A stretch of DNA of 64,000 nucleotides. It comes from an uncultured bacterium. GTDB lineage: Bacteria > Patescibacteriota > Minisyncoccia > Phycocordibacterales > UBA9973. Below, piece by piece: positions 24,031 through 63,619 of the stretch; within the stretch, counting starts at the first letter, position 1; each line of letters opens with the position of its first letter. A program made the translations under genes and the position numbers. The stretch is from assembly GCA_903825255.1 (NCBI GenBank), contig CAIJZZ010000070.1, forward strand, positions 8,767 through 72,766. Direction: 5' to 3'. The notes under the pieces are model-generated. The model did no database searches. It was given only the letters and a program-made list of their open reading frames with translations, and was not told the origin of the DNA.

Positions 24031-24097
24031 GTGCTGTTTTTTCAGGTCCTCGGTCCTCCTCGCGAGTACGCTCGGCCAGACCATTCAAAAACAGCAC
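24031..24097. repeat. family A GC-capped hairpin element, copy A1
   Basis: Arms GTGCTGTTTTT / AAAAACAGCAC enclose TCAGGTCCTCGGTCCTCCTCGCGAGTACGCTCGGCCAGACCATTC. The core matches 59515-59564 at 49 of 50 positions. Confidence 0.85.
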
Positions 24098-32079: not shown

Positions 32080-35000
32080 ATGGAGGATCAAAATAAAAAA
32101 TCAGAAAGTGCCTTGCGCGAAGAAGCGGTTTTAAAATTCTGGAAAGAACAGAAAGTTTTTGAGAGTTCTTTAGCAAAAGAGTCGCCAAAGGGTGAGTATG
32201 TTTTTTATGAAGGTCCTCCGACCGCGAACGGTAAGCCTGGTATTCACCACTTGGAAGCTAGAGCTTTTAAAGATGCCATCCCACGTTACAAAACAATGTG
32301 CGGATATCATGTACGTCGAAAAGGAGGTTGGGACACACATGGTTTGCCAGTAGAGCTACAGGTAGAAAAAGAATTAGGGTTAAAATCTAAAAAAGAAATT
32401 GAAGAATACGGTATCGCAAAATTTAATCAAAAGTGTAAAGAGAGTGTTTGGACTTATGTAGACCTTTGGGAGAAATTTACAGAGAGAATAGGGTATTGGG
32501 TAGATCAAGAAAATCCATATGTAACATATCATAATGATTATATTGAATCTGTTTGGAATGTAATTAAAGAAACGAATAAACAAAATTTACTTTATAAAGA
32601 TTATAAGGTGGTACCTTGGTGTCCACGTTGTGGTACGACACTTTCTTCTCACGAGCTTGCGCAAGGGTATGAAGTGGTGAAAGATTTGTCAGTTACTGCG
32701 AAGTTTAAAATTAAAGCCTCGTCCAGTACTTCTGCTCGGGTCCTCGGTCTGGGGCCAGACCACTCGCAGAAGCACATGGACTCGGCTAATGCCTATATAC
32801 TTGCTTGGACAACGACACCTTGGACTTTGCCTGGTAATGTTGCACTTGCTGTCGGGGAAGATATTATTTATGTAAAAATAAAAAAAGATGATGAAATTTT
32901 AATTCTTGCAAAAGCAAGGCTTTCGCAAATAGAAGGTGAATATGAAATTCAAGAGGAATTAAAAGGTAAAGATTTGATCGGCTTAGAATATGAACCATTG
33001 TATCCATTTTTGAAAGATAATATTTCTGAAAAAGAAAAACCAAAATTAGAAAAAGCTTTTCAGGTGCATAAGGCTGGTTTTGTGACGACGGAAGATGGTA
33101 CTGGGGTAGTGCATACAGCTGTGATGTATGGACAGGATGACTTTATTTTAGGTAATGAAGTTGGCTTACCGAAACATCATCTTGTGGGTCTCGATGGAAA
33201 GTTTTTAAAAGATACTGGCTTTTTAGAAGGCAGGTTTGTACGGGATGAAGAGGTAGCAGTAGATATTATTAAAGATTTAGCAAGTCGCGGGCTTTTATTT
33301 AAGAAAGAAAAATATGAGCACTCATATCCACATTGTTGGCGTTGTCACACAGCGCTCATTTATTATGCGCGAGATTCTTGGTATATAAAAATGACTGCAC
33401 TGCGAGATAAAATGGTGGCAGAAAATGAAGGCATAAATTGGGAGCCAGAATATATCAAAGAAGGGCGTTTTGGCGAGTGGCTTCGAGAAATAAAGGACTG
33501 GGCGATTTCTCGAGAGCGATATTGGGGTACACCCTTACCTGTGTGGACTTGTGAAAAGTGTCACCAGAATGAAGTAGTTGGTAGTATTGCCGATCTAAAA
33601 GCAAAAATAAAAAAGTCTGGGAATAATTATTTTGCTATGCGCCACGGTGAGGCAGATAATAATTTAAGTGATTTATATTATAAAGATCCTCATCATACAG
33701 CTAAATTAACAGAAAAAGGAAAAGCTCAAGTTTTAGAGAGTGCTAAAAATTTTAAAGAAAAAATTGATATAGTTATCGCGTCTCCTTTTGAAAGAACTAA
33801 AGAAACTTCTAAGATTATTTGTGAACAAATAAATTTTCCTATAGAAAAAATAATTTACGATGAAAGAATTCAAGAATGGGAAATTAGTTCAAATTTTGAG
33901 GGGAAAGGAAGGGCAACTTTTAAACAGTATTATGAAAAAGATTATTTAGATAATCCGACCGAAGTATTACCAGACGGAGAAAGTTTTACCGAGCTTATAA
34001 AAAGAGTTGGTAGTTTTATTTATGATTTAGAAAATAAATATTCAGGTAAAAATATTTTAATTGTTGGGCATGCAGGAGTCGGTGATGCATTAGGCTTTGT
34101 AATAAATGGGCTAACCCCTGATTCTTTTTCGAGTAAAAATGACCCATTTAATCCACTTCAAAATGCTGAAATTAAAAATTTTGATTTCATTCCACTTCCA
34201 CATAATGAAAATTATGAACTTGATTTACACAAACCATATATTGATGAAGTGGAGTTAGTTTGTGACTGCGGAGGGAAATTAGTCAGAGCGAAAGAAGTCA
34301 TGGATGTGTGGCTCGATTCTGGTACGATGCCTTTTTCGCAAGATCATTATCCCTTCAATGGGGAGATTCAATATCCTGCTGATTTTATTTCTGAAGCGAT
34401 AGATCAGACACGTGGTTGGTTTTATACTTTACACGCCGTTGGAGCTTTGATGGGACGGGGAAAAGCTTATAAAAATGTAATTTGCTTAGGACTTCTACTT
34501 GATGCGAAGGGTAAGAAGATGTCTAAATCTGTTGGAAATATCGTGGACCCTTGGGAGATGATTGAGAAGTACGGAGTAGATACTTTGCGCTTTTGGATGT
34601 ATTCAGTGAATCAACCAGGGGAATCAAAACTTTTTGATGAAAAAACTGTTTTAGAATTACATCGTCAGATTTTTGGTTTGCTCTATAATGTGCTCGCATT
34701 TTATGAATTATACCGTGATCCACAATTAGAAGTTCTAGAATATAAAAAACCAGAAAATATTTTAGACCAATGGATAGTCGCTAAATTAGACGAACTTATT
34801 AAACTCTGCACTCTAAAAATAGAAGATTATAAATTATTGGAGCCAGCTCGAGCTATTAAAGATTTTATTGGGGATCTTTCGACTTGGTATTTACGTAGAT
34901 CTCGAGAGAGAATAAAAGAAGGAGATATTGAAGCCAAACAAACTTTATATTTTATTCTAAAAACTTTAGCGAAAATTATGGCACCGTTTGCGCCTTTTTC

Positions 35001-35583
35001 GGCGGAAGATATTTGGCAGAAATTGAAGAATGAAAATGACATAGAAAGTGTGCATTTAGAAAGTTGGCCTACCTTCGCTCTCGCTACGGCGGGCGAGGCC
35101 CAAAATATTTTAGAGAATATGGATCAAGTTAGAAAGATTGTTTCTCTGGGACTAGAAGCTCGACAGAAAGCGGGGATAAAAGTACGTCAACCGCTACAGA
35201 AATTAGAAGTTGCAAACCTATCATTAAGAGCAGAATTTTTAGAAATTATTAAAGATGAATTGAATATAAAAGAAGTGACAGTAAATAAGAAATTAGAAGC
35301 AGAAGTATTTTTAGATACAGAAATTTCTGAAGAATTGAAGATAGAGGGGCAATATCGCGAGTTCGTGCGAGCTATTCAAGATATGCGTAAAAAAGCTGGG
35401 CTAACACCCTCTGATGTTATTATACTTTCTGTTGAAACTGGCGAGGAAGGTAGAAAAATAATTGAAAAATTTGAAACTGAAATTAAAAAAACAGTCCTTG
35501 CCTCAAAAATAGAATTTTCTCCTAATGATGGGGATACTGTAAAAGTTGATGAATTGATTTTCAAAATACTCATTCAAAAATAA
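32080..35583 (+). CDS. ileS: isoleucyl-tRNA synthetase (type 2) carrying an internal histidine-phosphatase domain and two short GC-rich inserts
   Basis: PPTANGKPGIHHLE (HIGH), WTTTPWTLPGN, WISRERYWGTPLP and KMSKSVGN are present. The protein is 1167 aa because of insertions. Confidence 0.95.
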   Translation: MEDQNKKSESALREEAVLKFWKEQKVFESSLAKESPKGEYVFYEGPPTANGKPGIHHLEARAFKDAIPRYKTMCGYHVRRKGGWDTHGLPVELQVEKELGLKSKKEIEEYGIAKFNQKCKESVWTYVDLWEKFTERIGYWVDQENPYVTYHNDYIESVWNVIKETNKQNLLYKDYKVVPWCPRCGTTLSSHELAQGYEVVKDLSVTAKFKIKASSSTSARVLGLGPDHSQKHMDSANAYILAWTTTPWTLPGNVALAVGEDIIYVKIKKDDEILILAKARLSQIEGEYEIQEELKGKDLIGLEYEPLYPFLKDNISEKEKPKLEKAFQVHKAGFVTTEDGTGVVHTAVMYGQDDFILGNEVGLPKHHLVGLDGKFLKDTGFLEGRFVRDEEVAVDIIKDLASRGLLFKKEKYEHSYPHCWRCHTALIYYARDSWYIKMTALRDKMVAENEGINWEPEYIKEGRFGEWLREIKDWAISRERYWGTPLPVWTCEKCHQNEVVGSIADLKAKIKKSGNNYFAMRHGEADNNLSDLYYKDPHHTAKLTEKGKAQVLESAKNFKEKIDIVIASPFERTKETSKIICEQINFPIEKIIYDERIQEWEISSNFEGKGRATFKQYYEKDYLDNPTEVLPDGESFTELIKRVGSFIYDLENKYSGKNILIVGHAGVGDALGFVINGLTPDSFSSKNDPFNPLQNAEIKNFDFIPLPHNENYELDLHKPYIDEVELVCDCGGKLVRAKEVMDVWLDSGTMPFSQDHYPFNGEIQYPADFISEAIDQTRGWFYTLHAVGALMGRGKAYKNVICLGLLLDAKGKKMSKSVGNIVDPWEMIEKYGVDTLRFWMYSVNQPGESKLFDEKTVLELHRQIFGLLYNVLAFYELYRDPQLEVLEYKKPENILDQWIVAKLDELIKLCTLKIEDYKLLEPARAIKDFIGDLSTWYLRRSRERIKEGDIEAKQTLYFILKTLAKIMAPFAPFSAEDIWQKLKNENDIESVHLESWPTFALATAGEAQNILENMDQVRKIVSLGLEARQKAGIKVRQPLQKLEVANLSLRAEFLEIIKDELNIKEVTVNKKLEAEVFLDTEISEELKIEGQYREFVRAIQDMRKKAGLTPSDVIILSVETGEEGRKIIEKFETEIKKTVLASKIEFSPNDGDTVKVDELIFKILIQK
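32728..32773 (+). repeat. family A GC-capped hairpin element, copy A3 (in frame inside ileS)
   Basis: ACTTCTGCTCGGGTCCTCGGTCTGGGGCCAGACCACTCGCAGAAGC. The arms are CTTCTGC/GCAGAAG and the inner stem is GGTCTGG/CCAGACC. It encodes ...TSARVLGLGPDHSQKH... Confidence 0.75.
35066..35101 (+). repeat. family B GC-rich element, copy B1 (in frame inside ileS)
   Basis: GGCCTACCTTCGCTCTCGCTACGGCGGGCGAGGCCC shares CCTTCGC..GCTACGG..CGGGCG with 58417-58451. It encodes PTFALATAGEAQ. Confidence 0.6.
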
Positions 35584-39409: not shown

Positions 39410-40762
39410 ATGAAAAAAGAAGAAAATACAACTGAAAATGATTTAATGGAAAAAATAGTTTCGCTTTGTAAGCGACGTGGTTTTATTTTTCCTGGATCAG
39501 AAATATATGGTGGACTCGCGGGTACATACGACTGGGGACATTTTGGAGTAGCCCTAAAAAATAATATTAAGCAATATTGGTGGAAAAAATTTGTTGACTC
39601 TAGGCGAGACATGTATGGCTTAGATGCTGCGATTTTAATGCGTCAAGAAGTTTGGCAAAAAGCTGGACATGTTGAGAACTTTGCGGATCCGATGGTGGAA
39701 TGTGAAAAATGTCATAAGAGATTTAGAGCTGATCAAATTGAGAATAAAGAAAAATGCGCTGAGTGTGGGGGAAAGTTAGGAAAACCTATGCATTTTAATA
39801 TGATGTTTAAAACCCAAGTCGGAGTCATTGAAGATTCTTCAGCGACTTCATACTTGCGTCCTGAAACTGCTCAAGGTATGTTTATTAATTTTAAAAATAC
39901 AGTAGATGCTTTTCATCCGAAATTGCCTTTCGGTATGGCACAGATTGGTAAAGCTTTTCGGAATGAAATAACTCCACGCGATTTTATTTTTCGTCAGCGA
40001 GAATTTGAACAGATGGAGATAGAATATTTTGTGCGAGAAACAGATTGGGAAAAATATTTCGAATACTGGCGTGGGGAGATGCTCGATTGGATGGAAGAAG
40101 TTGGTATTGATATGAATAAAGTGCATGAGATAGAAGTTGACAAGGAAGACCGAGCGCATTATTCTTCACGTACGGTAGACTTTGAATTTGATTACCCTTT
40201 TGGACAGAAAGAACTTTTCGGTTTGGCTTATCGGACCAATTTTGATTTAAAAAATCATGGACTTGAATATGTGGATGAAGAAGCTAATCGCGCTTCAAAG
40301 GACATTGCGCGACATGATCCTGTAGGATCAAAAATGATTCCCCACGTTGTGGAGCCGACTTTTGGTGTTGACCGTGCAGTGCTTTCAATTTTACTTTCAG
40401 CCTATACTGAGGAAGATAAAGGAGAGGAGGTGAGACCATATCTAAAATTTAAACCGAATATTGCACCAGTAATTTGTGCGGTGTCGCCACTTTTGAAAAA
40501 TAAACCTGAGCTTGTGGAATATGCGAATACAAAAGTTTTTGCTCCGCTTAAAGCAGAATTCGGCCGGGTGCTTTGGGATGACAATGGCAACATCGGTAAA
40601 CGCTATCGTCGCCAAGATGAAATAGGCACTCCATTTTGTATTGTGGTGGATTTCGATACCCTCGCTGATAACACTGTGACTGTACGGGATAGGGACACTG
40701 CCTTACAAGTACGTGTAAAAGTTTCAGAACTAGCAAATTATATTAAAGAAAAAATTAGTTAG
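39410..40762 (+). CDS. glyQS: glycyl-tRNA synthetase (dimeric class II type)
   Basis: CKRRGFIFPGSEIYGGLAGTYDWGHFG, YLRPETAQG and FRNEITPRDFIFRQREFEQMEIEYF are present. Confidence 0.93.
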   Translation: MKKEENTTENDLMEKIVSLCKRRGFIFPGSEIYGGLAGTYDWGHFGVALKNNIKQYWWKKFVDSRRDMYGLDAAILMRQEVWQKAGHVENFADPMVECEKCHKRFRADQIENKEKCAECGGKLGKPMHFNMMFKTQVGVIEDSSATSYLRPETAQGMFINFKNTVDAFHPKLPFGMAQIGKAFRNEITPRDFIFRQREFEQMEIEYFVRETDWEKYFEYWRGEMLDWMEEVGIDMNKVHEIEVDKEDRAHYSSRTVDFEFDYPFGQKELFGLAYRTNFDLKNHGLEYVDEEANRASKDIARHDPVGSKMIPHVVEPTFGVDRAVLSILLSAYTEEDKGEEVRPYLKFKPNIAPVICAVSPLLKNKPELVEYANTKVFAPLKAEFGRVLWDDNGNIGKRYRRQDEIGTPFCIVVDFDTLADNTVTVRDRDTALQVRVKVSELANYIKEKIS

Positions 40763-47499: not shown

Positions 47500-48087
47500 T
47501 TATTTGCTAGCTCGTTCGACGTAATCTCCATTTTCAGTATTAATGATGACCGTGTCACCTTCATTGATAAACATTGGAGCGTTTATTGTAGTTCCGTTTT
47601 CGAGAGTAATCACTTTATTGCCACCCTTAGAAGTATCTCCGCGAACTGCTGGTGGAGCTTCTTTGACTTTGAATTCCATTTTGATAGGTAGAGTTAGCCC
47701 AATAGTTTTTTCTTCATCGTCATCTGTCGTCCAGACGAGAGCGGTGACATTTTCATTCGCTTTTAAAAATTTAGCAGTATTGCCAAGCAAGTCACCATTT
47801 AATTTAAATCTATTTTTAGGATCTTCTGGGTCACAGAACCAATATTCGCCTTTATTACTGTATAAAAATTTCACATCTCGTTTTTCGATTTCAGCTTCAT
47901 CGGCTTTATCGGAAACGTGATAAGTAGCGGGGAAGACCTTTCCAGAAATTAAACTTTTTAATTTAACCTGGTTTTGAGGTTTGCGTTGTTGAGTTCGAGC
48001 GACATGAGACTCAATAACTTCACAAGGTTCGTCGTCATGAATAATTACTTTCTTTTCTCTTATTGCACTATATTCTAATGTTGCCAT
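47500..48087 (-). CDS. efp: elongation factor P (atypical domain-I loop)
   Basis: Three-domain EF-P layout. The C-terminal GDTSKGGNKVITLENGTTINAPMFINEGD is present. The loop reads HVARTQQRKPQNQVKL instead of FVKPGKGQAFARVKL. Confidence 0.88.
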   Translation of the reverse strand: MATLEYSAIREKKVIIHDDEPCEVIESHVARTQQRKPQNQVKLKSLISGKVFPATYHVSDKADEAEIEKRDVKFLYSNKGEYWFCDPEDPKNRFKLNGDLLGNTAKFLKANENVTALVWTTDDDEEKTIGLTLPIKMEFKVKEAPPAVRGDTSKGGNKVITLENGTTINAPMFINEGDTVIINTENGDYVERASK

Positions 48088-48725: not shown

Positions 48726-48734
48726 AAAATTATT

Positions 48735-49805
48735 TTATTCTTCTTCCTTAAACTTCTTTCTTATCTCCTTTAGAATATCTGTAGCGATTTTTTTATTTTC
48801 TTTGAGGAATGTGCGAGTGTTGTCATAACCGACTCCTAATTTTATTTTCTCGCCCTGTGAAGCCTTGGCGGAGGAGGGTTCTTTTTCGCCACCTGGTGTA
48901 TAAAAATAAGAGTTACCAGTTTTTTCTATGATTTTAAATTTTTCACCAAGAGCCATTATTTCTCCTTCTTTAGAAATACCTTCGTTGTAAATGATATCAA
49001 ATTCAGTTTGTTTGAATGGTGCCGCCACTTTATTTTTTACGACTTTTACGCGAGTGCGGGAACCGACGACGTCTTCGCCTTTTTTAATTTGAGCAATTTT
49101 ACGAATATCTAATCGAATAGAAGTATAGAACTTCAAAGCTTTTCCACCAGTTGTTGTTTCTGGATTACCAAACATTACACCGATTTGCATACGGATTTGG
49201 TTGATAAAGATAACAACCGTTTTTGATTTAGCGACGATAGCCGTGAGTTTTCGAAGCGCTTGTGACATTAAACGAGCTTGTTTCCCGACGTGGTATGCGC
49301 CCATATCACCTTCGATTTCATCTTTTGGAGTAAGGGCAGCGACAGAGTCGATGACAATTACATCAATCTTACCAGTACGAACTAAACTTTCTACTATTTC
49401 TAAGGCTTGTTCACCTGTATCCGGTTGAGAAATAAGTAAGTCATTAATATTTACGCCAAGTTTTTTAGTGTATTCAGGATCCATAGCGTGCTCAGCATCA
49501 ATGTAAGCACAAACACCACCTAGTTTTTGAGCTTCAGCCACGATATGCAAAGAAAGGGTAGTCTTACCCGAGGATTCTGGTCCAAAGATTTCAATAATTC
49601 TGCCACGTGGAATTCCTCCGACACCGAGCGCCATATCTAATCCAATAGAGCCTGTCGGAATGACATTGATATCTACTTTCGGTGTGTCACCCATTTTCAT
49701 AATGGATCCTTCCCCGAATTTAGTCTGGATCGCCTTTAATGTATCTTCTAAGCCTGATTGATTTACTGTTTTGTCTTCTTTTTTCTCTTTTTTCTTTTGT
49801 TGCAT
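48735..49805 (-). CDS. recA: recombinase RecA
   Basis: [13 protein letters not shown] (Walker A), [10 protein letters not shown], and the loop regions [19 protein letters not shown]. Confidence 0.96.
48850..48880 (-). repeat. family B GC-rich element, copy B2 (in frame inside recA)
   Basis: The recA-sense strand reads AACCCTCCTCCGCCAAGGCTTCACAGGGCGAG, about 25 of 33 identical to 53929-53962. It is flanked by the direct repeats GGCGAAAAA / GGCGAGAAA. Confidence 0.65.
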
Positions 49806-49832
49806 AAACTTTTTAGTAATTTTGTAGGATTT

Positions 49833-49885
49833 GCTTTTTCGAGCTGGTCTGGCTTCAAACCGAGGACCCGAGAAAAAGTAAAGCC
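49833..49885 (-). repeat. family A GC-capped hairpin element, copy A4
   Basis: The reverse complement reads CTTTTTCTCGGGTCCTCGGTTTGAAGCCAGACCAGCTCGAAAAAG. Confidence 0.75.
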
Positions 49886-49892
49886 TATAAAA

Positions 49893-50249
49893 TTACTTTA
49901 ATATTAATTTATAATTTTTTTCATCACTATTTTTAAATTTATCTTCTGCTTTTATATCAATTATATTATACCCCAAGAGGAGTGCAATCGTTTCATCAAA
50001 GTTGCCTTGTTGGTCGATTGAGATTATTCTACCATTTATGCTTAAGTTTATTGCATTTTTTGCATTACCAGTGATTCGCATAATCTCACCAGGAGTAGTA
50101 GACCCGTCCATGATATTTATAATCTGTACATTTTTTATTTTTACACCGAAGATCAAGTCTCTTGAGCCGATAAAAACAAAAATTATTATTATCAGAAATA
50201 AAAGTGATACCGATCCTATTTTAACAATTTTTTTCGCGTCTTGGTTCAT
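49893..50249 (-). CDS. hypothetical single-TM protein
   Basis: 118 aa, with a TM (IGSVSLLFLIIIIFVFIG). It lies between ftsK and recA on the same strand. Confidence 0.5.
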   Translation of the reverse strand: MNQDAKKIVKIGSVSLLFLIIIIFVFIGSRDLIFGVKIKNVQIINIMDGSTTPGEIMRITGNAKNAINLSINGRIISIDQQGNFDETIALLLGYNIIDIKAEDKFKNSDEKNYKLILK

Positions 50250-50260
50250 TTTGGTTAGAC

Positions 50261-50329
50261 GGGTAATATTTTATTTTGCTCGGGTCCTCGGTTTGGGGGG
50301 AGCCCTGCTCGCAAAACAAAATATTACCC
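50261..50329 (+). repeat. family A GC-capped hairpin element, copy A5
   Basis: 19-bp arms GGGTAATATTTTATTTTGC / GCAAAACAAAATATTACCC (18 of 19 paired) enclose TCGGGTCCTCGGTTTGGGGGGAGCCCTGCTC. Confidence 0.75.
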
Positions 50330-50332
50330 TTT

Positions 50333-52534
50333 CTAGATTACATTTCCTCCATCTTCTGTGTGTTCGATTTTTTCTAGTACCTCTCGAGGTTTTGCGCCAT
50401 CTCCTGGTCCGATCACTCCACGGTCTTCGAGCATATCCATAAGTCTTGCAGCTCGAGCATAACCAAGTTTTAATTTTCTTTGTAAATATGAAGTTGAAGC
50501 TTTTCCGGCTTCAATGATACAAGCACGAGCTTCTTCATACATTTCATCTTCTTCGTCTGCATCATCTAAGGTGCTTTCAAAAATACTTTTATCAGCTGAA
50601 ATTGAACCAGAAGTTAAAGAAATTTCATCATTTATTTCATCTTTATATGTTTCCACTAAATATTTAACTACTTTTTTTACTTCACCTTCAGAAATAAAGG
50701 CAGATTGTAGACGTTCTGGTTGAGCATCTCCTGAAGAATAAAGCATATCACCAGCCCCGAGTAGTTTTTCGGCTCCGCCAGCATCTAAGATAGTGCGTGA
50801 ATCTATTTGTGAAGAAACTTTAAGAGCAATACGAGCAGGGATATTGGCTTTAATAAGTCCAGTAATGACATTTACTTCTGGGCGCTGAGTGGAAAGAATT
50901 AGGTGGATACCGACAGCGCGAGACATTTGAGCGAGACGAACGATAGCAGATTCAAGTTCTCTAGGGTATGTGGTCATTATATCGGCTAACTCGTCTATTA
51001 TAATGACAATATATGGCATACGCTCAGCATTTACTTCTGTTTCTACTCCGGCGCTGTCTGTTTTAATTTTTTTATTATTTTTACCAAAAACATTTTCATG
51101 GTATGAACTTATGTCTCGCACAGATTCTGCTTCTAAAATATCATATCGACGGTCCATTTCCTTCGCGGCCCATTTGAGAGCCAGAATTGTTTTTTTAGCA
51201 TCAGTGATGACGGGAGTGAGTAAGTGCGGAATTTTATTATAAAGAGTAAGTTCAACACGTTTTGGGTCAATTAAAATTAATTTCAAATCATCTGGTCCGT
51301 TTCGGTAGAGAAGAGAAGTAATCATCGAATGTATGGTGACTGATTTTCCAGAACCAGTAGTTCCAGCGACGAGACAGTGAGGCATTTTGGCTAAATTACC
51401 AAACATGGCTTTCCCAGAAATTCCACGACCGAGGGCGACCGTAATCGGCTTGTTTGAATTTTGGAATTTTTCATCTGAAAGGAGAGTAGCAAGGCCGACG
51501 ATTGATTTTGATCTATTAGGAATTTCGATACCGACGAGAGACTTACCAGGGATCGGAGCTTCAATACGAATCGGGTGCGCAGCGAGAGCGAGAGATAAAT
51601 CATTTTGTAATCCGACTATACGAGAAAGTTTCATGCCTTCAGCTGGTTTTAATGCATAGCGAGTGACTGTGGGTCCCACAGTGATCTCATCCATTTCAAC
51701 TTCAATACCGAAGTTTGCGAGTGTGCGTTTAATAATATTCGCATTGGCTTTAATGTCGCCAGTGTTTGGCTTGCCTTTATCTTCTTCCAGTAATGAAAGT
51801 GGGGGAGGCACGTAAGAAGATAAAAGATTTTTTCTTTTTTTGATTGGGATCTCTTCCTCTTCATTTTCTTTCGGTAAAACTAATTCTTTTTCTTTTTTAC
51901 TTATGCCTAAATTTTTGATGATTTTATCACCAAGATTTTCTTTTTCAGTTTCTTCCTCTTCCGCGTCCTCCTCAATAGGTTCTTCCTCGATTCTTTCTTT
52001 CTTTTTAAAAATATTAAAAATACTTTTTAAGATTGGCAGAAGCATTGGTTTAGTATCAAACATTATTAAAATAGAAATTATTAAAATAGCACCAAGTAAA
52101 ACGATGCTAGCATAAACATCAAAAAGAGAAACGAACGGAGCAGATAAAATTCTACCCAAAAGTCCGCCAGTGTTACTTCCGGAAGTTATATCTATGATAC
52201 CCAAACTAGAAAGTAAAAACATTAGAGAACTGAAAGTGCGATTCCAGCCAATGTTTGGTCGTTCGGATTTAACAAAAGAAGATCCTAATAAAATAAAAAG
52301 AATTGGTAGAAGTATATAACCAATTCCTAATAAATAATAAAAAATATCATAAACGAATTGTCCCGCTACTCCAGCCATATTGAAAGCGGACATAAAAAGA
52401 AAAAGTGCTAAAACAAAAAAAACAACTGCCCAAATACCATGTTTGGTTTCTGTTTTTAATTTAGAAATATTTTTTTTACTTTTGTCATTATTTGAATTTT
52501 TGTTGATAGTTTTTTGCTTGTCATTTTTTACCAT
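50333..52534 (-). CDS. ftsK: DNA translocase FtsK/SpoIIIE
   Basis: N-terminal TM block, an acidic linker, the motor with AGTTGSGKSV (Walker A) and VIIIDELADIM, and a C-terminal gamma wHTH (TSYLQRKLKLGYARAARLMD). Confidence 0.93.
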   Translation of the reverse strand: MVKNDKQKTINKNSNNDKSKKNISKLKTETKHGIWAVVFFVLALFLFMSAFNMAGVAGQFVYDIFYYLLGIGYILLPILFILLGSSFVKSERPNIGWNRTFSSLMFLLSSLGIIDITSGSNTGGLLGRILSAPFVSLFDVYASIVLLGAILIISILIMFDTKPMLLPILKSIFNIFKKKERIEEEPIEEDAEEEETEKENLGDKIIKNLGISKKEKELVLPKENEEEEIPIKKRKNLLSSYVPPPLSLLEEDKGKPNTGDIKANANIIKRTLANFGIEVEMDEITVGPTVTRYALKPAEGMKLSRIVGLQNDLSLALAAHPIRIEAPIPGKSLVGIEIPNRSKSIVGLATLLSDEKFQNSNKPITVALGRGISGKAMFGNLAKMPHCLVAGTTGSGKSVTIHSMITSLLYRNGPDDLKLILIDPKRVELTLYNKIPHLLTPVITDAKKTILALKWAAKEMDRRYDILEAESVRDISSYHENVFGKNNKKIKTDSAGVETEVNAERMPYIVIIIDELADIMTTYPRELESAIVRLAQMSRAVGIHLILSTQRPEVNVITGLIKANIPARIALKVSSQIDSRTILDAGGAEKLLGAGDMLYSSGDAQPERLQSAFISEGEVKKVVKYLVETYKDEINDEISLTSGSISADKSIFESTLDDADEEDEMYEEARACIIEAGKASTSYLQRKLKLGYARAARLMDMLEDRGVIGPGDGAKPREVLEKIEHTEDGGNVI

Positions 52535-52573
52535 ATTTATCTATTTTAACATAAATTTAAAAATTTATTTTAT

Positions 52574-52648
52574 AAAAAAACAAAATATGAAAGTTTTCTG
52601 GCGGACAAGACGCAGCCAGTGCCCGCAGGCGAAAACTTTCACATTTTG
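52574..52648. repeat. singleton long GC-capped hairpin
   Basis: 24-nt arms AAAAAAACAAAATATGAAAGTTTT / AAAACTTTCACATTTTGTTTTTTT (23 of 24 complementary) flank CTGGCGGACAAGACGCAGCCAGTGCCCGCAGGCG. Confidence 0.7.
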
Positions 52649-52731
52649 TTTTTTTTATTAATCCCTCTGACAAGGGGGAAATAAGGGGTTAAAAAACTTG
52701 CCTTTTTTATTGTCCTATATATAATGGACGT

Positions 52732-53619
52732 ATGTTAGAGGAAAATAAAAATTTAAAGGACTCTGTTCAAAATACACCTAGTTCTTATAGGACAGATTCT
52801 AATATAATTGAGATGGACACTTATTTTTCTATCTCTTATATAAAGACTAAAAAACTTATTACAGCGCTTTATATGGTAACGGACATGATTGATAAAGATG
52901 AACCATTAAGGAATAAATTAAGGACATTAGGAGGGAATCTTATATCGGACATATATTCTTTTTCACAAATTGATTTATCTGAAAAGATGAATAATAAGAT
53001 TTTAGAAATAGTGTCTTTTTTAGATATTCTTAGTGCAATCGGAATGATTTCTGAAATGAATTGTAATATTCTAAAAAAGGAGTTTTTTGAATTAAAGAAA
53101 GTCGTTAATGAGATTAAATCAGAATCAGATTTGTTAGGATTTTTTACAGAAGATTTAGAAAATAATCTTCAAGAAAATTTGGGAGTTAATAATTACCAAA
53201 ATCAATTTTCATTAAAGACAAACGATAACCTAAAGAATGATTTTGTTAGACATAATCAAGTCCATAATATTAATGGACACGAACATAAAGGACACCAGAC
53301 AAGGATAGGTGTCCAAAAAGGAAGTACTTTAATGAAGGCTCTTAATGAAGTTAAAATTCCAACCAATATCCTATCCTTAAATGTTAAAGATCATAAAACT
53401 GATTTTAACGAATTGAAAAAACAAAGGAGAGATGAAATTGTTAAAATAATAAAAGAAAAAAATGGAGCTACTATAACGGACATTAAAAATTCTGCAAAAG
53501 GGGTGCTACTTTCTTGTGGTGAAAAAACTTTACAAAGGGAACTGATTTCTATGGTACATAATGGTGTCCTTTATAAAATCGGAGAAAAAAGATGGTCTCG
53601 CTATTTTTTATCAAAATAG
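52732..53619 (+). CDS. hypothetical protein with C-terminal winged-helix DNA-binding-like domain
   Basis: The C-terminus RRDEIVKIIKEKNGATITDIKNSAKGVLLSCGEKTLQRELISMVHNGVLYKIGEKRWSRY resembles a DeoR/wHTH module. Confidence 0.55.
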   Translation: MLEENKNLKDSVQNTPSSYRTDSNIIEMDTYFSISYIKTKKLITALYMVTDMIDKDEPLRNKLRTLGGNLISDIYSFSQIDLSEKMNNKILEIVSFLDILSAIGMISEMNCNILKKEFFELKKVVNEIKSESDLLGFFTEDLENNLQENLGVNNYQNQFSLKTNDNLKNDFVRHNQVHNINGHEHKGHQTRIGVQKGSTLMKALNEVKIPTNILSLNVKDHKTDFNELKKQRRDEIVKIIKEKNGATITDIKNSAKGVLLSCGEKTLQRELISMVHNGVLYKIGEKRWSRYFLSK

Positions 53620-53928
53620 ATTAAAAACTAAATTTTATTCAAACATTTTGCAACGTTTATTCGCTCTAATGCGTATATAAATACGTACTCTATGGTTTGC
53701 ATTTTAGGTAAAAATATGCGATTATTAGAGTGTGGGTTTTGTTTCATTTAGTTTGTGTTGTAAAGCACAGATTATGAAGGAGTTTATCCACATAATATTT
53801 GCTGTATTTAATAGCAAATATTATAATGTTATTATGTTTATGGAACGCACATAAGTGTGCAGTTCTGTATTCATAAATTGTATTTATTTTTGTTCACAAT
53901 TTCGTCGAAAAAATTTTGAATAAAAATA

Positions 53929-53962
53929 AGCCCTCCTTCGCGAAAGCTTCGGACGGGCAAGG
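53929..53962 (+). repeat. family B GC-rich element, copy B3
   Basis: AGCCCTCCTTCGCGAAAGCTTCGGACGGGCAAGG, an isolated GC-rich island in AT-rich intergenic DNA. Confidence 0.75.
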
Positions 53963-54260
53963 AAAGGTCATTGAAAACTAAAGAGGAAAAATCTTGTGGA
54001 ATTTTCTACAGGATAGATTCGTTTTGGTTTTCTTTTCAACCAAAGACTGATTTAGTCTTTGGAAGAAGTTTAAAGTAAATCTGTTCACTGTCAATTTTTT
54101 CTACCCAACTTATTAGTCTTATTATTATTATTTTTTGGTAGATAAAAACAGTGATAGAAAAATATGCTTTTAGTTTTGTCGAAACTAATTAATGGCATAT
54201 TACTTCATCTAAATTTTATTTTAAAAAATAGAACTAGATAGAAGTATATTAGATAATTTT

Positions 54261-57200
54261 ATGAGTAATTTATTCAAATCAAAATTCCTTATGGGATTTA
54301 TGGTTGTCGCTCTTGCATTCTCATTTTCTTTTCTTGGTAACACATCAAAAGTAAATGCTGCAGATGGCACTATCACAAAAACTTTAAGGTTAAAAATGCG
54401 AGATGTTCAAGTTAAGTATCTACAACAGACACTTAACGAAACAGGCTACGCTGTCGATGGTAATGGTGCTGGATCTGCTGGTCAAGAGACCACTTATTTC
54501 GGTAATGCTACCTTGGCTTCTGTAAAAGCTTTTCAAAAAGCTAACGGCTTAACCGCTGATGGAATTTTTGGAGCTAAATCACGTGCAGCTCTTCTAGCTA
54601 CACCTGGTACAGGAACAACGACAACTACGACAACAACTACAGGTACAACAACTGGTTGTCCAGCCGGAGCTATGTATAACTCAATCACGGGTGTACTTTG
54701 CTCTTCTTCAACTTCAACAACTACTACAACTACTACAACAACACAGTCTGGTCCTATATCAGCTATGTTGTCTACAGATAATCCAGCTGCTGGCACTATT
54801 GTTGCTGGTCAAGCAACTGCTGATTTGTTACACATTACCTTCACTGGTAACGGTACAGTTAATTCTGTAACCTTACAGAGAAGTGGTGTTTCCGATCAAA
54901 ATACACTTTCCAATGTCTATCTATATGATGGCGTGACTCGTGTTACAGACGGATATTCTTTCAACACAACTGGTATGATTATGATGAATAATCTTAATCT
55001 CGTTGTAAATGGTTCAAAGACTATCGCTGTAAAGGCAGATGTCGCTACAACAAATTCTTATGACGTAAAAGTTGCTTTAGTTGGCTTTACTTCAGGTACT
55101 ACTGCTAACACAGTCAGTATTATGGGTAATGACATGTATATTGCATCTGGTGGAAGTCTAGCTACTGTTGCTAAAGATTCTACTGGTGTCGCTACTGGTG
55201 CTACTGGTGGTAACACTGTGGCTAACGCAAGTGTGAATGCTGGTACAACTGGCTACACAGTATGGCGTCAAGTCATGCAAGTAAATACACGAAATGTTCA
55301 GCTTAAAGCTGCTAATTTCCGCATCACAGGATCAGCTCCTTCTGATGCACTTGCAAACGTAAATCTTTTTGTTGATGGACTTCAAGTTGGTACACAAGCA
55401 ACTATGACCATGGCAAATGGTTCAAATTATCTTACATTTGATATGAGTGCTGCTCCAGTTACTCTTACGACAGGCGGACACACCTTTGAGGTGCGTGGCG
55501 ATATCGTAAAAGGTTCAAGCTTCAGCTTCACAGTATCCTTACAGCAAGCTTCTGATTTGATGGTCACTGATCCTCAGATCGGCGTAAACATTGCTGTTTG
55601 TGGAACACTTGCATGTACTGGTTCATTCTCAGCAAGTACTGCTGGTACAATCTCAATCGGAGCTGGTTCAGCTACTGTTGTGATTGATCCTACCTTCAAT
55701 ACAATGACAAATGTTACTGGTGGCTCTTCAAACATTGCTATTGGTAAATTCAAAATTCATGGTTACGGCGAAGATGTAAAAGTTACATCATTACCTGTAT
55801 CTGTGGCTTTGTCTTCTGCTGCAGGTGCAGCCAATGCTGGTATTCAGAACGTAACTTTGTACTTTAATGGTTCACAAGTTGGTTCTCAGATATCTTTAAC
55901 TTCTAGTTCAGCTTTTGGAGCATCAAATTGTACAACTGGTGGAGCCAGCTTCAATTGTTACAGTAATACATTCTCTCTAGGCTCACAGATGATTATTCCT
56001 GCTGCCACAGATAGTATCCTTGAAGTTCGTGCCGATCTAAGAAAGACTGATGGTACAAGCTACACAGCTGGTACTGTTTCTGCAAACCTTGGAACTGGTA
56101 CAGCTGAAGGATTCAATTCTAAGGCTGCTATCACAACCAATGCTCAGACAGGCAATACTCTTACCATCCAGACAGGTCTTCTAGCTGTTGCAAAGAATAC
56201 TGGTTATTCTAACCAAACAGTTAGTCCAAATACTGCTGGTGTAAAACTTGGTTCATATGTTATTCAGAACCAAAGTTCTTCTGAATCAGTTCGTGTTACT
56301 AGTCTTGTTGTAAATCTATACGATAGTACAGCTACAACACCACTTGATAACACCACAACCACTCCAAAGTTAAATAATTTCTCTGGATTAAGAACTTCTG
56401 AAACTTCAGGTTCTGGCTCAACCCCAGTTCAACCTCAAGCTACAAATACTTTCTCTGTAGACTTTACTCTAGCTCCAGGAGCCACCAAGATCATCGACGT
56501 GTTTGCTGATACAAGTTCCACAACCGGTGGTGCTCAAGTTATCACCAAGCTTGCTGTTAATGCTCTTGGTTCATCAAGTAACACTTCAATCAGTATCGCA
56601 GCTCAACAAGGACAAACAGTCACTTTGAACTCTGGTACAGTTGGAGCTCCAGTACTTGTTTCTGCTTCTTCAACCGCTGCTCAATTCGTTCCAGCTGGTG
56701 ATCCAACCAATACTGGCACAGGCGCAGCTGATGCTACACGAGCAGATTACACATTCGTATCAACCAATGGTGCTGCTACAATTTCCGAACTTAAATTCAC
56801 TGTTAGTGGTTCAGCAACGAATCCTATCATGAGTGTTAAAGTCGGTTCAGCTACAGCTCCAGTCGTTTCTGGTGTTGCATGGTTACAAGGTTTGAATCTT
56901 GCTGTGCCAAACGGAGGCTCAGGTCTAACTGTTACTGCATATGCTACATATGCTCCAGTTGGTACTAATGCAGTTACTCCTAACACTACAGCAACGATTT
57001 CCTTGAGTTATGTTAAATACCAATCTGGTACTTCAGTCTCTACTGTAACCTTCCTTACCGCTGGTGGTAAGACTTACAATGATGTAGACGGAAGTGGCAC
57101 AGTTACTGCTGGTGATATTCGTACAGTTGCCCAAGATAAAGTCGTAGCTACTGCTGGTGCCGTAACTGGTACTATTACTGCTAACGCTACTACTTTTGTC

Positions 57201-58052
57201 ACAAGTCAATTTAGTTCTGCTCTTACCGAACCTGCAACTATTACCTTAGATAAATCTGCTGGTAATGTTTGGACAGTAAGTGCTGGTACTGGATGGACTA
57301 CTGCAGTTGTCACAGGTGGTACTGCTACTGCCTTCCCAACTTCTGTAACTTCCGCTACTGGTGAAGTTATCACCTTTACTGGTGGTACAACTACTACTGG
57401 AGCTGGAACCGCTGTAGTTACTTTAACTAGAACAGCTGGATTCTATACTCTTGGTTCAACAGTAGCCGCTGGTGACTCTGATCTTGGTTTGACAGCTTCT
57501 GCTGGTGTCCCTGCTCCAACTATGACAATGGTTGGTTCACGACCTACAGTTACTGTTAACACCACTTCAAACTCTGGTCTACAGATCAGTACAGTTGAAA
57601 ACAAAATTGGTGAATTAACAATCGCTGCTGATGCTAAGGGTGATATCAAACTTAATCAAGTTACCTTTAATGTAAGTAGTTCTAACTTCACAGCCGGTAC
57701 TCTTACATACACCTTGCCTCGTATTGCAGACGGTACAACCACTATCTCAGGTAGTGCATGTACTCCTCCAACCACGACCGCTGCTTCCGTACAAGTTGTT
57801 TGTAACTTAGGTTCAGCTACCCTTACTGACTTTGATGGATACACCATCTCAGCTGGTACTTCAAAGACTTTGAGCTTGTTCATGACTATTGCTGGTACAG
57901 CCGCTGCAAGTAGTACACAAACCATTGCAAGTTCTGTATTAAATACAGGATTTAATTGGGATGATACTTCAACCAACGGTGTAACTGGTACTAATCTTTC
58001 TGGTTCAAATCTATACAACTTCCCAACTGGAAGTTACTCAGTGCATAACTAA
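54261..58052 (+). CDS. giant Thr/Ala/Gly/Ser/Val-rich surface protein with signal peptide and peptidoglycan-binding domain
   Basis: Signal peptide ...SKVNA|ADG. A PG_binding_1-like segment (VQVKYLQQTLNETGY...VKAFQKANGLTADGIFGAKS). Poly-Thr linkers flank GCPAGAMYNSITGVLC. More than 1000 aa of diverged beta-sandwich-like repeats follow. Confidence 0.8.
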   Translation: MSNLFKSKFLMGFMVVALAFSFSFLGNTSKVNAADGTITKTLRLKMRDVQVKYLQQTLNETGYAVDGNGAGSAGQETTYFGNATLASVKAFQKANGLTADGIFGAKSRAALLATPGTGTTTTTTTTTGTTTGCPAGAMYNSITGVLCSSSTSTTTTTTTTTQSGPISAMLSTDNPAAGTIVAGQATADLLHITFTGNGTVNSVTLQRSGVSDQNTLSNVYLYDGVTRVTDGYSFNTTGMIMMNNLNLVVNGSKTIAVKADVATTNSYDVKVALVGFTSGTTANTVSIMGNDMYIASGGSLATVAKDSTGVATGATGGNTVANASVNAGTTGYTVWRQVMQVNTRNVQLKAANFRITGSAPSDALANVNLFVDGLQVGTQATMTMANGSNYLTFDMSAAPVTLTTGGHTFEVRGDIVKGSSFSFTVSLQQASDLMVTDPQIGVNIAVCGTLACTGSFSASTAGTISIGAGSATVVIDPTFNTMTNVTGGSSNIAIGKFKIHGYGEDVKVTSLPVSVALSSAAGAANAGIQNVTLYFNGSQVGSQISLTSSSAFGASNCTTGGASFNCYSNTFSLGSQMIIPAATDSILEVRADLRKTDGTSYTAGTVSANLGTGTAEGFNSKAAITTNAQTGNTLTIQTGLLAVAKNTGYSNQTVSPNTAGVKLGSYVIQNQSSSESVRVTSLVVNLYDSTATTPLDNTTTTPKLNNFSGLRTSETSGSGSTPVQPQATNTFSVDFTLAPGATKIIDVFADTSSTTGGAQVITKLAVNALGSSSNTSISIAAQQGQTVTLNSGTVGAPVLVSASSTAAQFVPAGDPTNTGTGAADATRADYTFVSTNGAATISELKFTVSGSATNPIMSVKVGSATAPVVSGVAWLQGLNLAVPNGGSGLTVTAYATYAPVGTNAVTPNTTATISLSYVKYQSGTSVSTVTFLTAGGKTYNDVDGSGTVTAGDIRTVAQDKVVATAGAVTGTITANATTFVTSQFSSALTEPATITLDKSAGNVWTVSAGTGWTTAVVTGGTATAFPTSVTSATGEVITFTGGTTTTGAGTAVVTLTRTAGFYTLGSTVAAGDSDLGLTASAGVPAPTMTMVGSRPTVTVNTTSNSGLQISTVENKIGELTIAADAKGDIKLNQVTFNVSSSNFTAGTLTYTLPRIADGTTTISGSACTPPTTTAASVQVVCNLGSATLTDFDGYTISAGTSKTLSLFMTIAGTAAASSTQTIASSVLNTGFNWDDTSTNGVTGTNLSGSNLYNFPTGSYSVHN

Positions 58053-58117
58053 TTTAGTTATAGCTTAGCGTTTCTCGATACGGATAAATCGGGAGTCTAG
58101 CTGACTAAAATCGCTCC

Positions 58118-58154
58118 AAAAAACCCGATCGCCATTAAGGCGACGGGTTTTTTT
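58118..58154 (+). terminator. intrinsic terminator after the giant gene
   Basis: AAAAAACCCGATCGCC-ATTA-AGGCGACGGGTTTTTTT. Confidence 0.8.
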
Positions 58155-58199
58155 GCGTTTATAGTTATGGTGATTTTATATGATATAATATGAATATAT

Positions 58200-58343
58200 A
58201 TGAAACATTTTTTCAAAATACTTTTAATTTTTCTAGGAATGATAGTTTTGGGCTTAATTGGAGTTTTTATACTTAGTTTTTTCAATGATACAGCCAGACA
58301 AGACAATTCAAACACTGGAGTTCCAATAAATCTTCAGAAATAA
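58200..58343 (+). CDS. possible 47-aa single-TM protein (not in ORF track)
   Basis: Own translation: MKHFFKILLIFLGMIVLGLIGVFILSFFNDTARQDNSNTGVPINLQK, ending at the TAA at 58341-58343. TGaTATAAT at 58181-58189 lies 10 nt upstream of the ATG. Confidence 0.4.
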   Translation: MKHFFKILLIFLGMIVLGLIGVFILSFFNDTARQDNSNTGVPINLQK

Positions 58344-58394: not shown

Positions 58395-58600
58395 ACCGCA
58401 AAGAAAACAGGCAAACAGCCCTCCTTCGCATAAAGCTACGGACGGGCGCAGTAAGTCCTGTTTAGTGGGTCGATATTCTGACGTTAAGTCGGAAAAACCT
58501 TGCGGCTATTAAGCCGTTTTTTTTATTAGAAAATAAGGAGCGTTGCGACTATATTTTCTTGTACTCCGACTTTAGTCGGAGAAGTTAATCAAAAAAAATT
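58395..58600 (+). promoter_or_regulatory. long structured leader of rplJ-rplL (possible L10 autoregulatory leader/attenuator)
   Basis: Helix AAACAGG/CCTGTTT encloses element B4. A CGGCT-ATTA-AGCCG hairpin with a T8 run lies at 58503-58524. A CTCCGAC-TTTA-GTCGGAG hairpin lies near the start codon. Confidence 0.4.
58417..58451 (+). repeat. family B GC-rich element, copy B4
   Basis: CAGCCCTCCTTCGCATAAAGCTACGGACGGGCGCAG. Confidence 0.75.
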
Positions 58601-59488: not shown

Positions 59489-59586
59489 AAAAAAACACAA
59501 ATAACTAAATTTTTTCAGGTCCTCGGTTCTCCTCGCGAGTACGCTCGGCCAGACCATTCAAAAATTTTTTATTTGTGTTTTTTTAA
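59489..59586. repeat. family A GC-capped hairpin element, copy A2
   Basis: Arms AAAAAACACAAATAA...TTATTTGTGTTTTTT enclose TCAGGTCCTCGGTTCTCCTCGCGAGTACGCTCGGCCAGACCATTC. It starts 4 nt after the rplL stop. Confidence 0.85.
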
Positions 59587-59591
59587 TTTTT

Positions 59592-59706
59592 ATCCCTATA
59601 TATTGTTTTCTAGGGTACGGATTTTTCAAAGATACATAAGTCTTAAAAAATCCTGAAGTTTTCGCGCCGTCGCGCTCAAAACCCCCTAAAAATAATATAT
59701 GGGGAT
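59592..59706. repeat. 115-nt unit bounded by ~24-nt inverted repeats (MITE-like or structured RNA)
   Basis: ATCCCTATATATTGTTTTCTAGGG (59592-59615) is largely complementary to CCCCCTAAAAATAATATATGGGGAT (59682-59706). The interior holds the helix GGATTTTT/AAAAAATCC. Confidence 0.5.
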
Positions 59707-63568: not shown

Positions 63569-63619
63569 TTTTTAAGGTCGAACCCCGTCGCTCGCGAGCG
63601 ATAGGGGAACTTAAAAAAA
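63569..63619. repeat. singleton GC-capped hairpin (possibly a diverged family A element)
   Basis: Arms TTTTTAAG / CTTAAAAA enclose GTCGAACCCCGTCGCTCGCGAGCGATAGGGGAA. It contains the CTCGCGAG palindrome also present in A1 and A2. Confidence 0.5.

Follow-up and report, generated by a model that had tools for sequence, protein, structure and literature searches.

The recA gene in the 64,000-nt window analyzed here, a stretch of contig CAIJZZ010000070.1 from an uncultured, Nomurabacteria-like bacterium of the Patescibacteriota with a tiny genome, contains a short GC-rich segment that is absent from its nearest relatives. Comparison with other copies indicates that this extra stretch is a partly decayed copy of a dispersed stem-loop repeat, apparently inserted in frame and tolerated there. 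We refer to the repeat family as family B or the SSAKA element, and we regard it as very probable that the recA segment is a slightly decayed member of this small, non-autonomous 30-nt repeat, which lies in both coding and intergenic DNA.

The recA insert and its empty alleles

To place the insert in context, the window RecA was compared with known proteins. A phmmer search against PDB matched residues 16-349 to RecA chains from E. coli and others with an E-value of about 1e-120, and the ATP-binding loop is intact, with GPESSGKTT kept in the PDB alignment. The best database relatives are RecA proteins of Candidatus Nomurabacteria / Paceibacterota, at 86-95% identity. At the insert, the recA coding strand reads ACA CCA GGT GGC GAA AAA GAA CCC TCC TCC GCC AAG GCT TCA CAG GGC GAG AAA ATA AAA. 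The GC content of the insert is about 70% (21 of 30 bases), and 40-nt windows at this position have a GC fraction of 0.53-0.58, against a whole window of 33% GC.

The likeness of this segment to intergenic DNA was found at the nucleotide level. A recA 20-mer, CCCTCCTCCGCCAAGGCTTC, matches positions 53931-53950 with three mismatches (17/20), and no such match occurred in 100 shuffles; blastn aligned the recA insert with the same intergenic element at 27 of 35 positions with one gap. Two profile hidden Markov models (HMMs) were used against circularity. The model built from 54 other copies, with all SSAKA-type recA copies excluded, recovered the window recA insert at E = 0.031 in a search of 1.3 Mb. 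The model built from seven non-recA copies only recovered the recA inserts of four further loci or locus pairs (L013, L082/L083, L041 and L084) at E <= 0.016, also in 1.3 Mb. Two of these loci, L082 and L084, which were obtained via proteins P0011 and P0004, carry the same element at the same codon (CCCTCCTCCGCTAAAGCTACGGAGAGCGAG and CCCTCCTCCGCTAAGGCTACGCAGGGCGAG, respectively) in a better-kept form than the window copy. The window insert is 91% identical to the L084 insert over 45 nt and matches it at 27/30 positions in the unit, whereas the gene overall is 78% identical.

A contrast is provided by contig L081, which encodes the closest protein, P0001 (95% identical RecA). This contig is syntenic with window positions 48731-58166 at 87-88% DNA identity over 9.6 kb, and only three indels of at least 30 nt separate the two across that distance. 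The first is 33 nt in recA (window 48852-48884) that L081 lacks; its empty site reads GGA GAA GAG AAA, with the junction between GAA and GAG. The second coincides with the intergenic family-B copy, 31 nt at 53931-53961: the surrounding spacer aligns with L081 almost base for base except for the missing element, with a junction ambiguity of at most 3 nt (AAG). The third is a 30-nt, AT-richer hairpin, CTTCCAAAGACTAAATCAGTCTTTGGTTGA, at 54036-54065, which adjoins an N run in L081 and is possibly an assembly gap. This close syntenic relative thus has neither the recA copy nor the 53931 copy, the two family-B copies of the shared region, and the family has therefore been gained or lost on a short time scale.

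Empty alleles are common well beyond L081. About half of the RecA sequences of 86-95% identity carry no insert at all, including the two nearest, P0001 and P0002, and the common empty allele of the clade is 9 codons shorter than the window allele. The 90% cluster of the window RecA has only two other members, both of 346 aa, which is the empty-allele length, and its representative, P0101, reads TPGGEQKEKV, an empty allele. In more distant Paceibacteria the turn has only 4 residues (e.g. GEEK), as in E. coli, compared with 11 residues in the loop of this clade.

Taken together, these results bear out what a first-pass annotation of the window had proposed: that recA carries a GC-rich, in-frame copy of the intergenic element it had placed at 53929-53962, and that the segment is the footprint of an element inserted in coding DNA and tolerated in frame. 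The competing possibility, that all related RecA sequences share the extra segment, is contradicted by the insert-free alleles. The first-pass measure of the insert, 12 codons or 36 nt, needs correction: the unit is 30 nt, L081 lacks 33 nt, and the common empty allele is 9 codons shorter.

A 30-nt repeat in genes and spacers

The family was delimited by a metagenome scan for CCTCCTCCGCYAARGCTWC, which returned at least 120 stretches; the counts of copies given below are among the matches listed. In these matches GGAGGR CAAG was conserved 3' of the scanned pattern, although it had not been selected for, and the unit is therefore defined as 30 nt in length, built from a GC-rich stem of 6 bp (NCCTCC/GGAGGN), a 14-nt loop that is conserved (TCCGCYAARGCTWC) and a tail of 4 nt (CAAG). 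The family consensus is N CCTCC TCCGC YAAR GCTWC GGAGG N CAAG. Positions 1 and 26 covary in the 77 listed copies (T-A in 24, C-G in 29, G-C in 3 and A-T in 2), and because this holds within each GC class, it reflects pairing and not genome composition. Positions 12 and 15 covary as well (T-A or C-G). The loops GCGAAAGC, GCTAAAGC and GCCAAGGC are presumably similar to stable DNA mini-hairpins.

The unit is exactly 10 codons long and so never shifts the reading frame. On contigs below 46% GC, 26 of the 34 listed copies lie within open reading frames (ORFs) of at least 120 aa, and 21 of those 26 gene-embedded copies are in the phase reading (P/S)SSAKA(S/T)E(G/D)K, a hydrophilic peptide; the recA copy is read in this same phase. 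The 30-mer occurs in contigs from 35% to 73% GC. Copies can also be nested, one unit sitting in the loop of another between GCT and TCGG, as in L086, L100, L153, L094 and L127. Nesting was always at this point and reached up to three levels in L127, and the contigs with nested or tandem copies also include L161 and L108; tandem arrays occur, for example, at the N-terminus of ribosomal protein S1 in L108, with repeated VEEVKEEASSSAKAAEDKK.

Host genes are diverse. Those confirmed by Pfam encode UvrC, class I and class II tRNA synthetases (MetRS twice at the same site, and ThrRS), Hsp70, ribosomal proteins L1, S1 and S2, GyrB (twice), NusA, HsdM, SSB, the CCA-adding enzyme, TypA/BipA and cysteine-desulfurase-like proteins. 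The EF-P gene of L019 (Nomurabacteria) has an in-frame copy, DLSSAKATAG, at 1822-1851; the window EF-P gene (47500..48087) has none. Family copies are also present in L021 and L022. The two Pfam-identified MetRS genes lie on different contigs, L116 (4525-6003) and L129 (3-908), and carry the element at the same site, LGW-PSSAKATEGK-PD; at L022 9286-9314 a related copy follows the same motif, LGW-PASAEAAAGK-PN. This LGW site looks like a second conserved insertion site.

Copies were also found outside the lineage of the window. The 61%-GC contig L162 encodes a pyruvate carboxylase B subunit with two copies, and its named relatives belong to the Kiritimatiellae. The pattern is also present in thirteen IMG/VR viral contigs (L205-L217) of 46-69% GC, whose ORFs have the same reading phase open; about nine of them show the extended stem arm. 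The family is not confined to bacteria of the candidate phyla radiation (CPR), and occurs also in Kiritimatiellae and in viral (predicted phage) contigs.

The RecA loop and the history of the insert

The extra residues were placed by HMMER between those matching E. coli G295 and E296 (that is, between K294-G295 and E296-K297), the E. coli numbering being anchored on residues that we take to be W290 and W308. The region is 16 residues longer than in E. coli RecA (2+12+2); a lengthening had been noted at first pass, with an estimate of about 14 aa. The insert sits at the turn between strands WYSY and EKIGQG, a beta-hairpin inside the RecA C-terminal domain; the suggested position, a disordered segment preceding the domain, does not hold. 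The AlphaFold model computed from a 38-sequence alignment had a mean predicted local distance difference test score (pLDDT) of 51 and was used only for the C-terminal domain (pLDDT 74-88). It has strands at 299-302 and 321-325 and a coil at 307-317 with pLDDT <50, which fits a predicted surface loop extension, though the model by itself is weak evidence.

To describe variation in this loop, the 120 best RecA homologs were aligned with the query (121 sequences). Between GNSYFY and KLGVGYD (window about 48840-48900), the loop is short in 58 of the 121 (e.g. TPAGEKAEKV) and longer in 63. At least eight peptide types can be told apart among the extended alleles: SSAKA (11), PASAKGSG (14), KAGSPDAS (8), LPLxKGEE (7), ARHDSAES (5), PAQ/PAEASAK (4), ARPDGR (3), SPEG (2) and others. 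An insert is present in the recA loop of 9 of the 21 species-level genomes of the clade (L001-L021). On a neighbour-joining tree of the RecA core the insert types are scattered and the two nearest neighbours of the query are empty; this tree is poorly resolved, the protein being very conserved.

At the DNA level the recA inserts are GC-rich and often palindromic, and each of the four insert types tested has copies elsewhere in the same or related genomes. The L033 insert has a copy elsewhere that is 100% identical over 49 nt, and the L017 insert one that is 95% identical over 62 nt; the type F insert has several copies each in L010, L017 and L021, and the type E insert has copies in L033, L035, L039, L023 and L018 and at window 40292-40333. 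In a set of 80 species-level loci (1.2 Mb), for which recA similarity was the sole criterion of choice, four of the eight family-B copies sit in the recA loop, which makes up about 0.2% of the searched DNA. The recA loop is an insertion hotspot, at which at least eight different insert types have been taken up. The excess may reflect target preference, tolerance, or recombination among recA alleles, which are conserved. In the recA inserts of L002, L004 and L013 the same family may lie in reverse orientation, a reading supported by minus-strand HMM matches; for L002 this history is uncertain, its recA exceeding the empty allele by just 3 codons.

Several observations weigh against the interpretation of the recA stretch as a copy of a mobile hairpin repeat. 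The window recA copy is the weakest member of the family, with the seven-copy non-recA HMM giving E = 0.11 when the window alone is searched and 2.3 over the 1.3 Mb, and its DNA folds no better than shuffled sequence (z = -0.09), the hairpin apparently having been lost. The consensus hairpin is itself only modestly stable as DNA (-5.9 kcal/mol, z = -2), and 22 of the 77 listed copies have a T:C mismatch at the 4:23 stem pair. The sampled Paceibacteria DNA is poor in copies, with about 15 in 1.3 Mb. In most homologs of the L162 protein, an Ala/Pro linker of similar length occupies the place of the element; because the Kiritimatiellae element thus replaces a linker and does not add 10 codons, simple insertion is not the whole story. 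No transposase or other mobilising gene was identified in a Pfam scan that took in 10 window ORFs and included no search aimed at RAYT. Finally, all three SSAKA-type recA inserts for which DNA is available share the tail CGAG, which is rare elsewhere (2 of the 77 listed copies), and all 11 SSAKA-type recA inserts lie at the same codon, K-E-[..]-(E)K.

The shared rare tail and identical junction make one old insertion, followed by descent or allele exchange, a live alternative. According to this alternative, an insert-bearing recA segment was made once in a Nomurabacteria ancestor and then inherited or exchanged by homologous recombination between related genomes, and the patchy distribution would stem from allele exchange and loss. 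It agrees with the preferred reading on the nature of the insert and differs from it only on history, and we consider it a real possibility, although not the favored one. The closeness of the window and L084 inserts relative to their genes speaks for it as well. No long tract of raised identity surrounds the insert in the window and L084, however, as judged by eye, the relatives closest to the window in RecA core and in synteny have no insert, and at least seven other unrelated insert types occupy the same loop, so that independent gains at the recA loop do occur. A selected functional module, in which a longer C-terminal-domain loop serves, for example, partner binding or evasion of a phage inhibitor and recruits repeat-encoded peptides to that end, is unlikely. 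In its favor, the clade loop already has 11 residues against 4 in distant relatives, more than half of the alleles are extended further (63/121), and the insert site adjoins residues that we take to lie near the double-stranded-DNA 'gateway' of the E. coli RecA C-terminal domain; yet the insert peptides are unrelated across types, close relatives manage without an insert, the same peptides occur in many unrelated proteins, and the loop is unstructured in the model.

A 9-nt target-site duplication, GGCGARAAA, had been suggested at first pass, with an empty allele expected to lack exactly 36 nt; this corresponds to a model of cut-and-paste or copy-and-paste insertion by a transposon-like element. 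Two such 9-mers are indeed present, GGCGAAAAA and GGCGAGAAA, identical at 8/9 positions and flanking most of the GC-rich stretch, but their reading as a target duplication did not hold. The nearest empty allele is 33 nt shorter, not 36. Empty recA alleles already carry GEK-x-EK (e.g. ..GEKAEK.. or ..GEEK..), and because of this the upstream 9-mer is original loop sequence. In the downstream 9-mer, GGC GAG is part of the element itself: GGAGGGCGAG likewise ends the TypA (L130) and L147 copies, and a GGGCGAG/GGGCAAG end is found in unrelated genes. The ambiguity at the 53931 empty site is at most 3 nt, and among 51 canonical listed copies, sequences flanking the element, compared at k = 3, 4, 5 and 9, matched no better than background at any offset tested. 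A 9-nt target duplication is thus not supported by the sequences compared, and we judge this scenario very improbable. Still less credible is an origin without mobile DNA, in which a hypervariable loop grew by slippage or duplication of a GEK-coding repeat, the likeness to the 53931 element arose by chance and the GC-richness came only from Pro, Ser, Ala and Gly codons. Repeated GAR AAR codons in the loop and the wide length variation among relatives would fit it; set against these are DNA-level matches in unrelated genes and in spacers on both strands, the clean presence or absence of the 53931 copy, the stem covariation, and the occurrence of the same 30-mer across 35-73% GC, for which shared peptide composition cannot account.

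Under the preferred reading, an in-frame copy of a mobile repeat, the recA copy would extend the loop neutrally and be tolerated for that reason, as a passenger in the course of decay that is probably no longer an active hairpin. The family would have spread without target duplication. The most likely route would be a trans-acting enzyme recognising a single-stranded DNA hairpin together with a 4-nt tag, similar to REP/RAYT, and homologous recombination between recA alleles may add to the patchy distribution. The likeness to RAYT-moved REP elements lies in the 4-nt tag beside a short GC stem, in the absence of duplication and in the way copies nest within hairpin loops. A more far-reaching proposal is that the SSAKA element represents an undescribed, cross-phylum class of codon-length hairpin repeat adapted to coding DNA, with a dedicated mobilisation or gene-conversion mechanism. 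Such a mechanism would be implied if the single phase, the lack of duplication, the loop nesting, the build-up in surface loops and the sharing among CPR, Kiritimatiellae and phage are taken together; we hold this proposal as tentative and rather doubtful.

Known systems and other repeats in the window

In-frame REP and RPE repeats have been described in repair, replication and tRNA-synthetase genes of Rickettsia, Opitutus, Thauera and others (PMC3733652), so the type of event is already known. REP elements (GTAG/CGTC superfamilies, with RAYT tyrosine transposases; Di Nocera et al. 2013, PMC3733652) and the SSAKA element are both dispersed; each is a GC-rich, imperfect palindrome in the range of 20-40 nt whose stem is adjoined by a 4-nt tag, and both have some copies in frame in DNA repair, replication and tRNA synthetase genes. 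Target duplication is not expected for REP, and none was seen in the SSAKA element. The two differ in that the SSAKA tag is CAAG (CTTG on the other strand), located 3' of the stem, and not GTAG/CGTC; in that the SSAKA unit is exactly 30 nt; in that SSAKA copies in AT-rich genomes are mostly intragenic (26/34 listed) and in one phase, whereas REP are mostly extragenic; and in that SSAKA copies are nested or in tandem, whereas REP often form inverted dimers (bacterial interspersed mosaic elements, BIMEs). Membership in the GTAG/CGTC superfamilies was considered and rejected on account of the tag; a GTAG is seen in some copies only, inside the loop, where the GCTAC variant is read on its reverse strand. 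A literature search, with most subscription journals outside its reach, found no description of the SSAKA family, its 30-nt one-phase habit, its presence in CPR or the recA hotspot; the nearest account was PMC3733652.

Transposable elements of the miniature inverted-repeat class (MITEs) resemble the SSAKA element in being non-autonomous, short, dispersed and possibly located in genes. They differ in their length of 50-500 bp, in terminal inverted repeats matching an insertion sequence (IS) element and in target duplications; assignment to MITEs was rejected, the SSAKA unit being a single 30-nt hairpin with no duplication in the 51 listed copies. Rickettsia palindromic elements (RPE) were reportedly described by Ogata et al. 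in 2000, a study cited in PMC3733652, as 'selfish DNA in protein-coding genes'. The length of RPE-1 is about 100-150 bp, and it is not known outside Rickettsia. Both RPE and the SSAKA element are palindromic repeats that occur in frame in essential genes of a small-genome bacterium, are tolerated at the protein surface and are also intergenic. The SSAKA element is 30 nt long, GC-rich in an AT-rich genome and present in CPR, Kiritimatiellae and viral contigs, a distinction drawn from the description of RPE. The GC clusters of yeast mitochondria and the derived 'byp' elements are short GC-rich palindromic mobile elements of a very AT-rich organellar genome, some of them in coding sequence, and byp elements are skipped by the ribosome. 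They share with the SSAKA element a GC-rich palindrome in an AT-rich genome that lies partly in genes, and differ in being organellar and ribosome-skipped. Because SSAKA copies are stop-free, in frame and a multiple of three in length, translation would be the simplest reading of them.

These comparisons bear on how short insertions in proteins are interpreted. The family shows that small repeats colonise essential proteins at tolerant surface loops. Short insertions without an explanation are frequent in the proteins of uncultivated bacteria with small genomes, and at least some of them are copies of mobile GC-rich repeats and not adaptations. This is relevant to annotation, to phylogenies built on recA and other marker genes, and to structure prediction. 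With its empty alleles and its many kinds of filled ones, the recA loop is a natural assay of repeat movement, and it could also serve to mark strains at a fine scale. Should the one-phase bias and the hotspot stem from how insertion works and not from selection, selfish DNA would have a new means of persisting in gene-dense genomes.

The features of recA and the copies in the window are collected in Table 1. A terminator role for the intergenic copies was considered and rejected: the 53931 hairpin followed by its T-run would lie on the minus strand between two plus-strand genes, and L081 has the T-run but not the hairpin. Searches of the whole window with Rfam (at gathering thresholds) and with ARAGORN gave no match, so the GC islands of the window are not known RNA genes.

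Table 1. Positions of recA, its insert and the related repeat copies in the window
Feature	Position	Strand	Details
recA	48735..49805	minus	356 aa, intact ORF; close homologs with RecA Pfam domains PF00154 and PF21096
Repeat unit in recA, CCCTCCTCCGCCAAGGCTTCACAGGGCGAG, 30 nt/10 codons, residues 310-319	48849..48878	minus	absent from L081; family HMM match
5' stem arm CCCTCC, unit positions 1-6	48873..48878	minus	fits family consensus NCCTCC
Decayed 3' stem arm ACAGGG (consensus GGAGGG)	48853..48858	minus	4/6 stem pairs left
Upstream 9-mer GGCGAAAAA, codons G-E-K	48882..48890	minus	pre-existing loop sequence
Downstream 9-mer GGCGAGAAA	48846..48854	minus	3' stem end and tail of the element (GGC GAG) plus flanking AAA
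Intergenic family-B copy CCCTCCTTCGCGAAAGCTTCGGACGGGCAAG, 31 nt	53931..53961	plus	HMM E = 1.7e-4; absent from L081
Second intergenic copy CCCTCCTTCGCATAAAGCTACGGACGGGCGCA	58419..58450	plus	90% identical to 53931 copy; HMM E = 1.2e-3
In-frame copy in IleRS-like class I tRNA synthetase gene (32080..35583), residues 997-1006, PTFALATAGE	35068..35097	plus	HMM E = 0.013
In-frame copy ASKDIARHDPVGSK of the ARHDSAES-type repeat family (recA insert of L006)	40292-40333		class II tRNA synthetase ORF 39410..40762

Several further GC-rich repeats and islands were noted in the window. The IleRS-like gene contains a second in-frame repeat of another family, CTCGGGTCCTCGGTCTGGGGCCAGACC (SARVLGLGPDHSQ, residues 218-230), at 32731-32769; residues 519-683 of this synthetase form a histidine-phosphatase (His_Phos_1) domain inserted between the halves of the catalytic domain (Pfam E = 6e-26). 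Family A, which is also GC-rich, has two 55-nt copies at 24037-24091 and 59510-59564 that are 98% identical, and its members at 49824-49882 and 50269-50327 flank a 118-aa gene upstream of recA as a 59-nt inverted repeat with 76% complementarity. Islands of at least 70% GC lie in frame at 21122-21191 (DEAD-box helicase) and 60425-60453 (PurH), with KQRSFAPARNGERSDSGRRGASAP and PSAIDLRARP, and between genes at 52600-52634, 59662-59687 and 63575-63608. L081 carries at 167-1561 a 464-aa gene with a peptidoglycan-binding domain to which nothing in the window corresponds at the matching position; L081 1-117 is aligned with window 58174-58292, after which the alignment picks up again at L081 1690.

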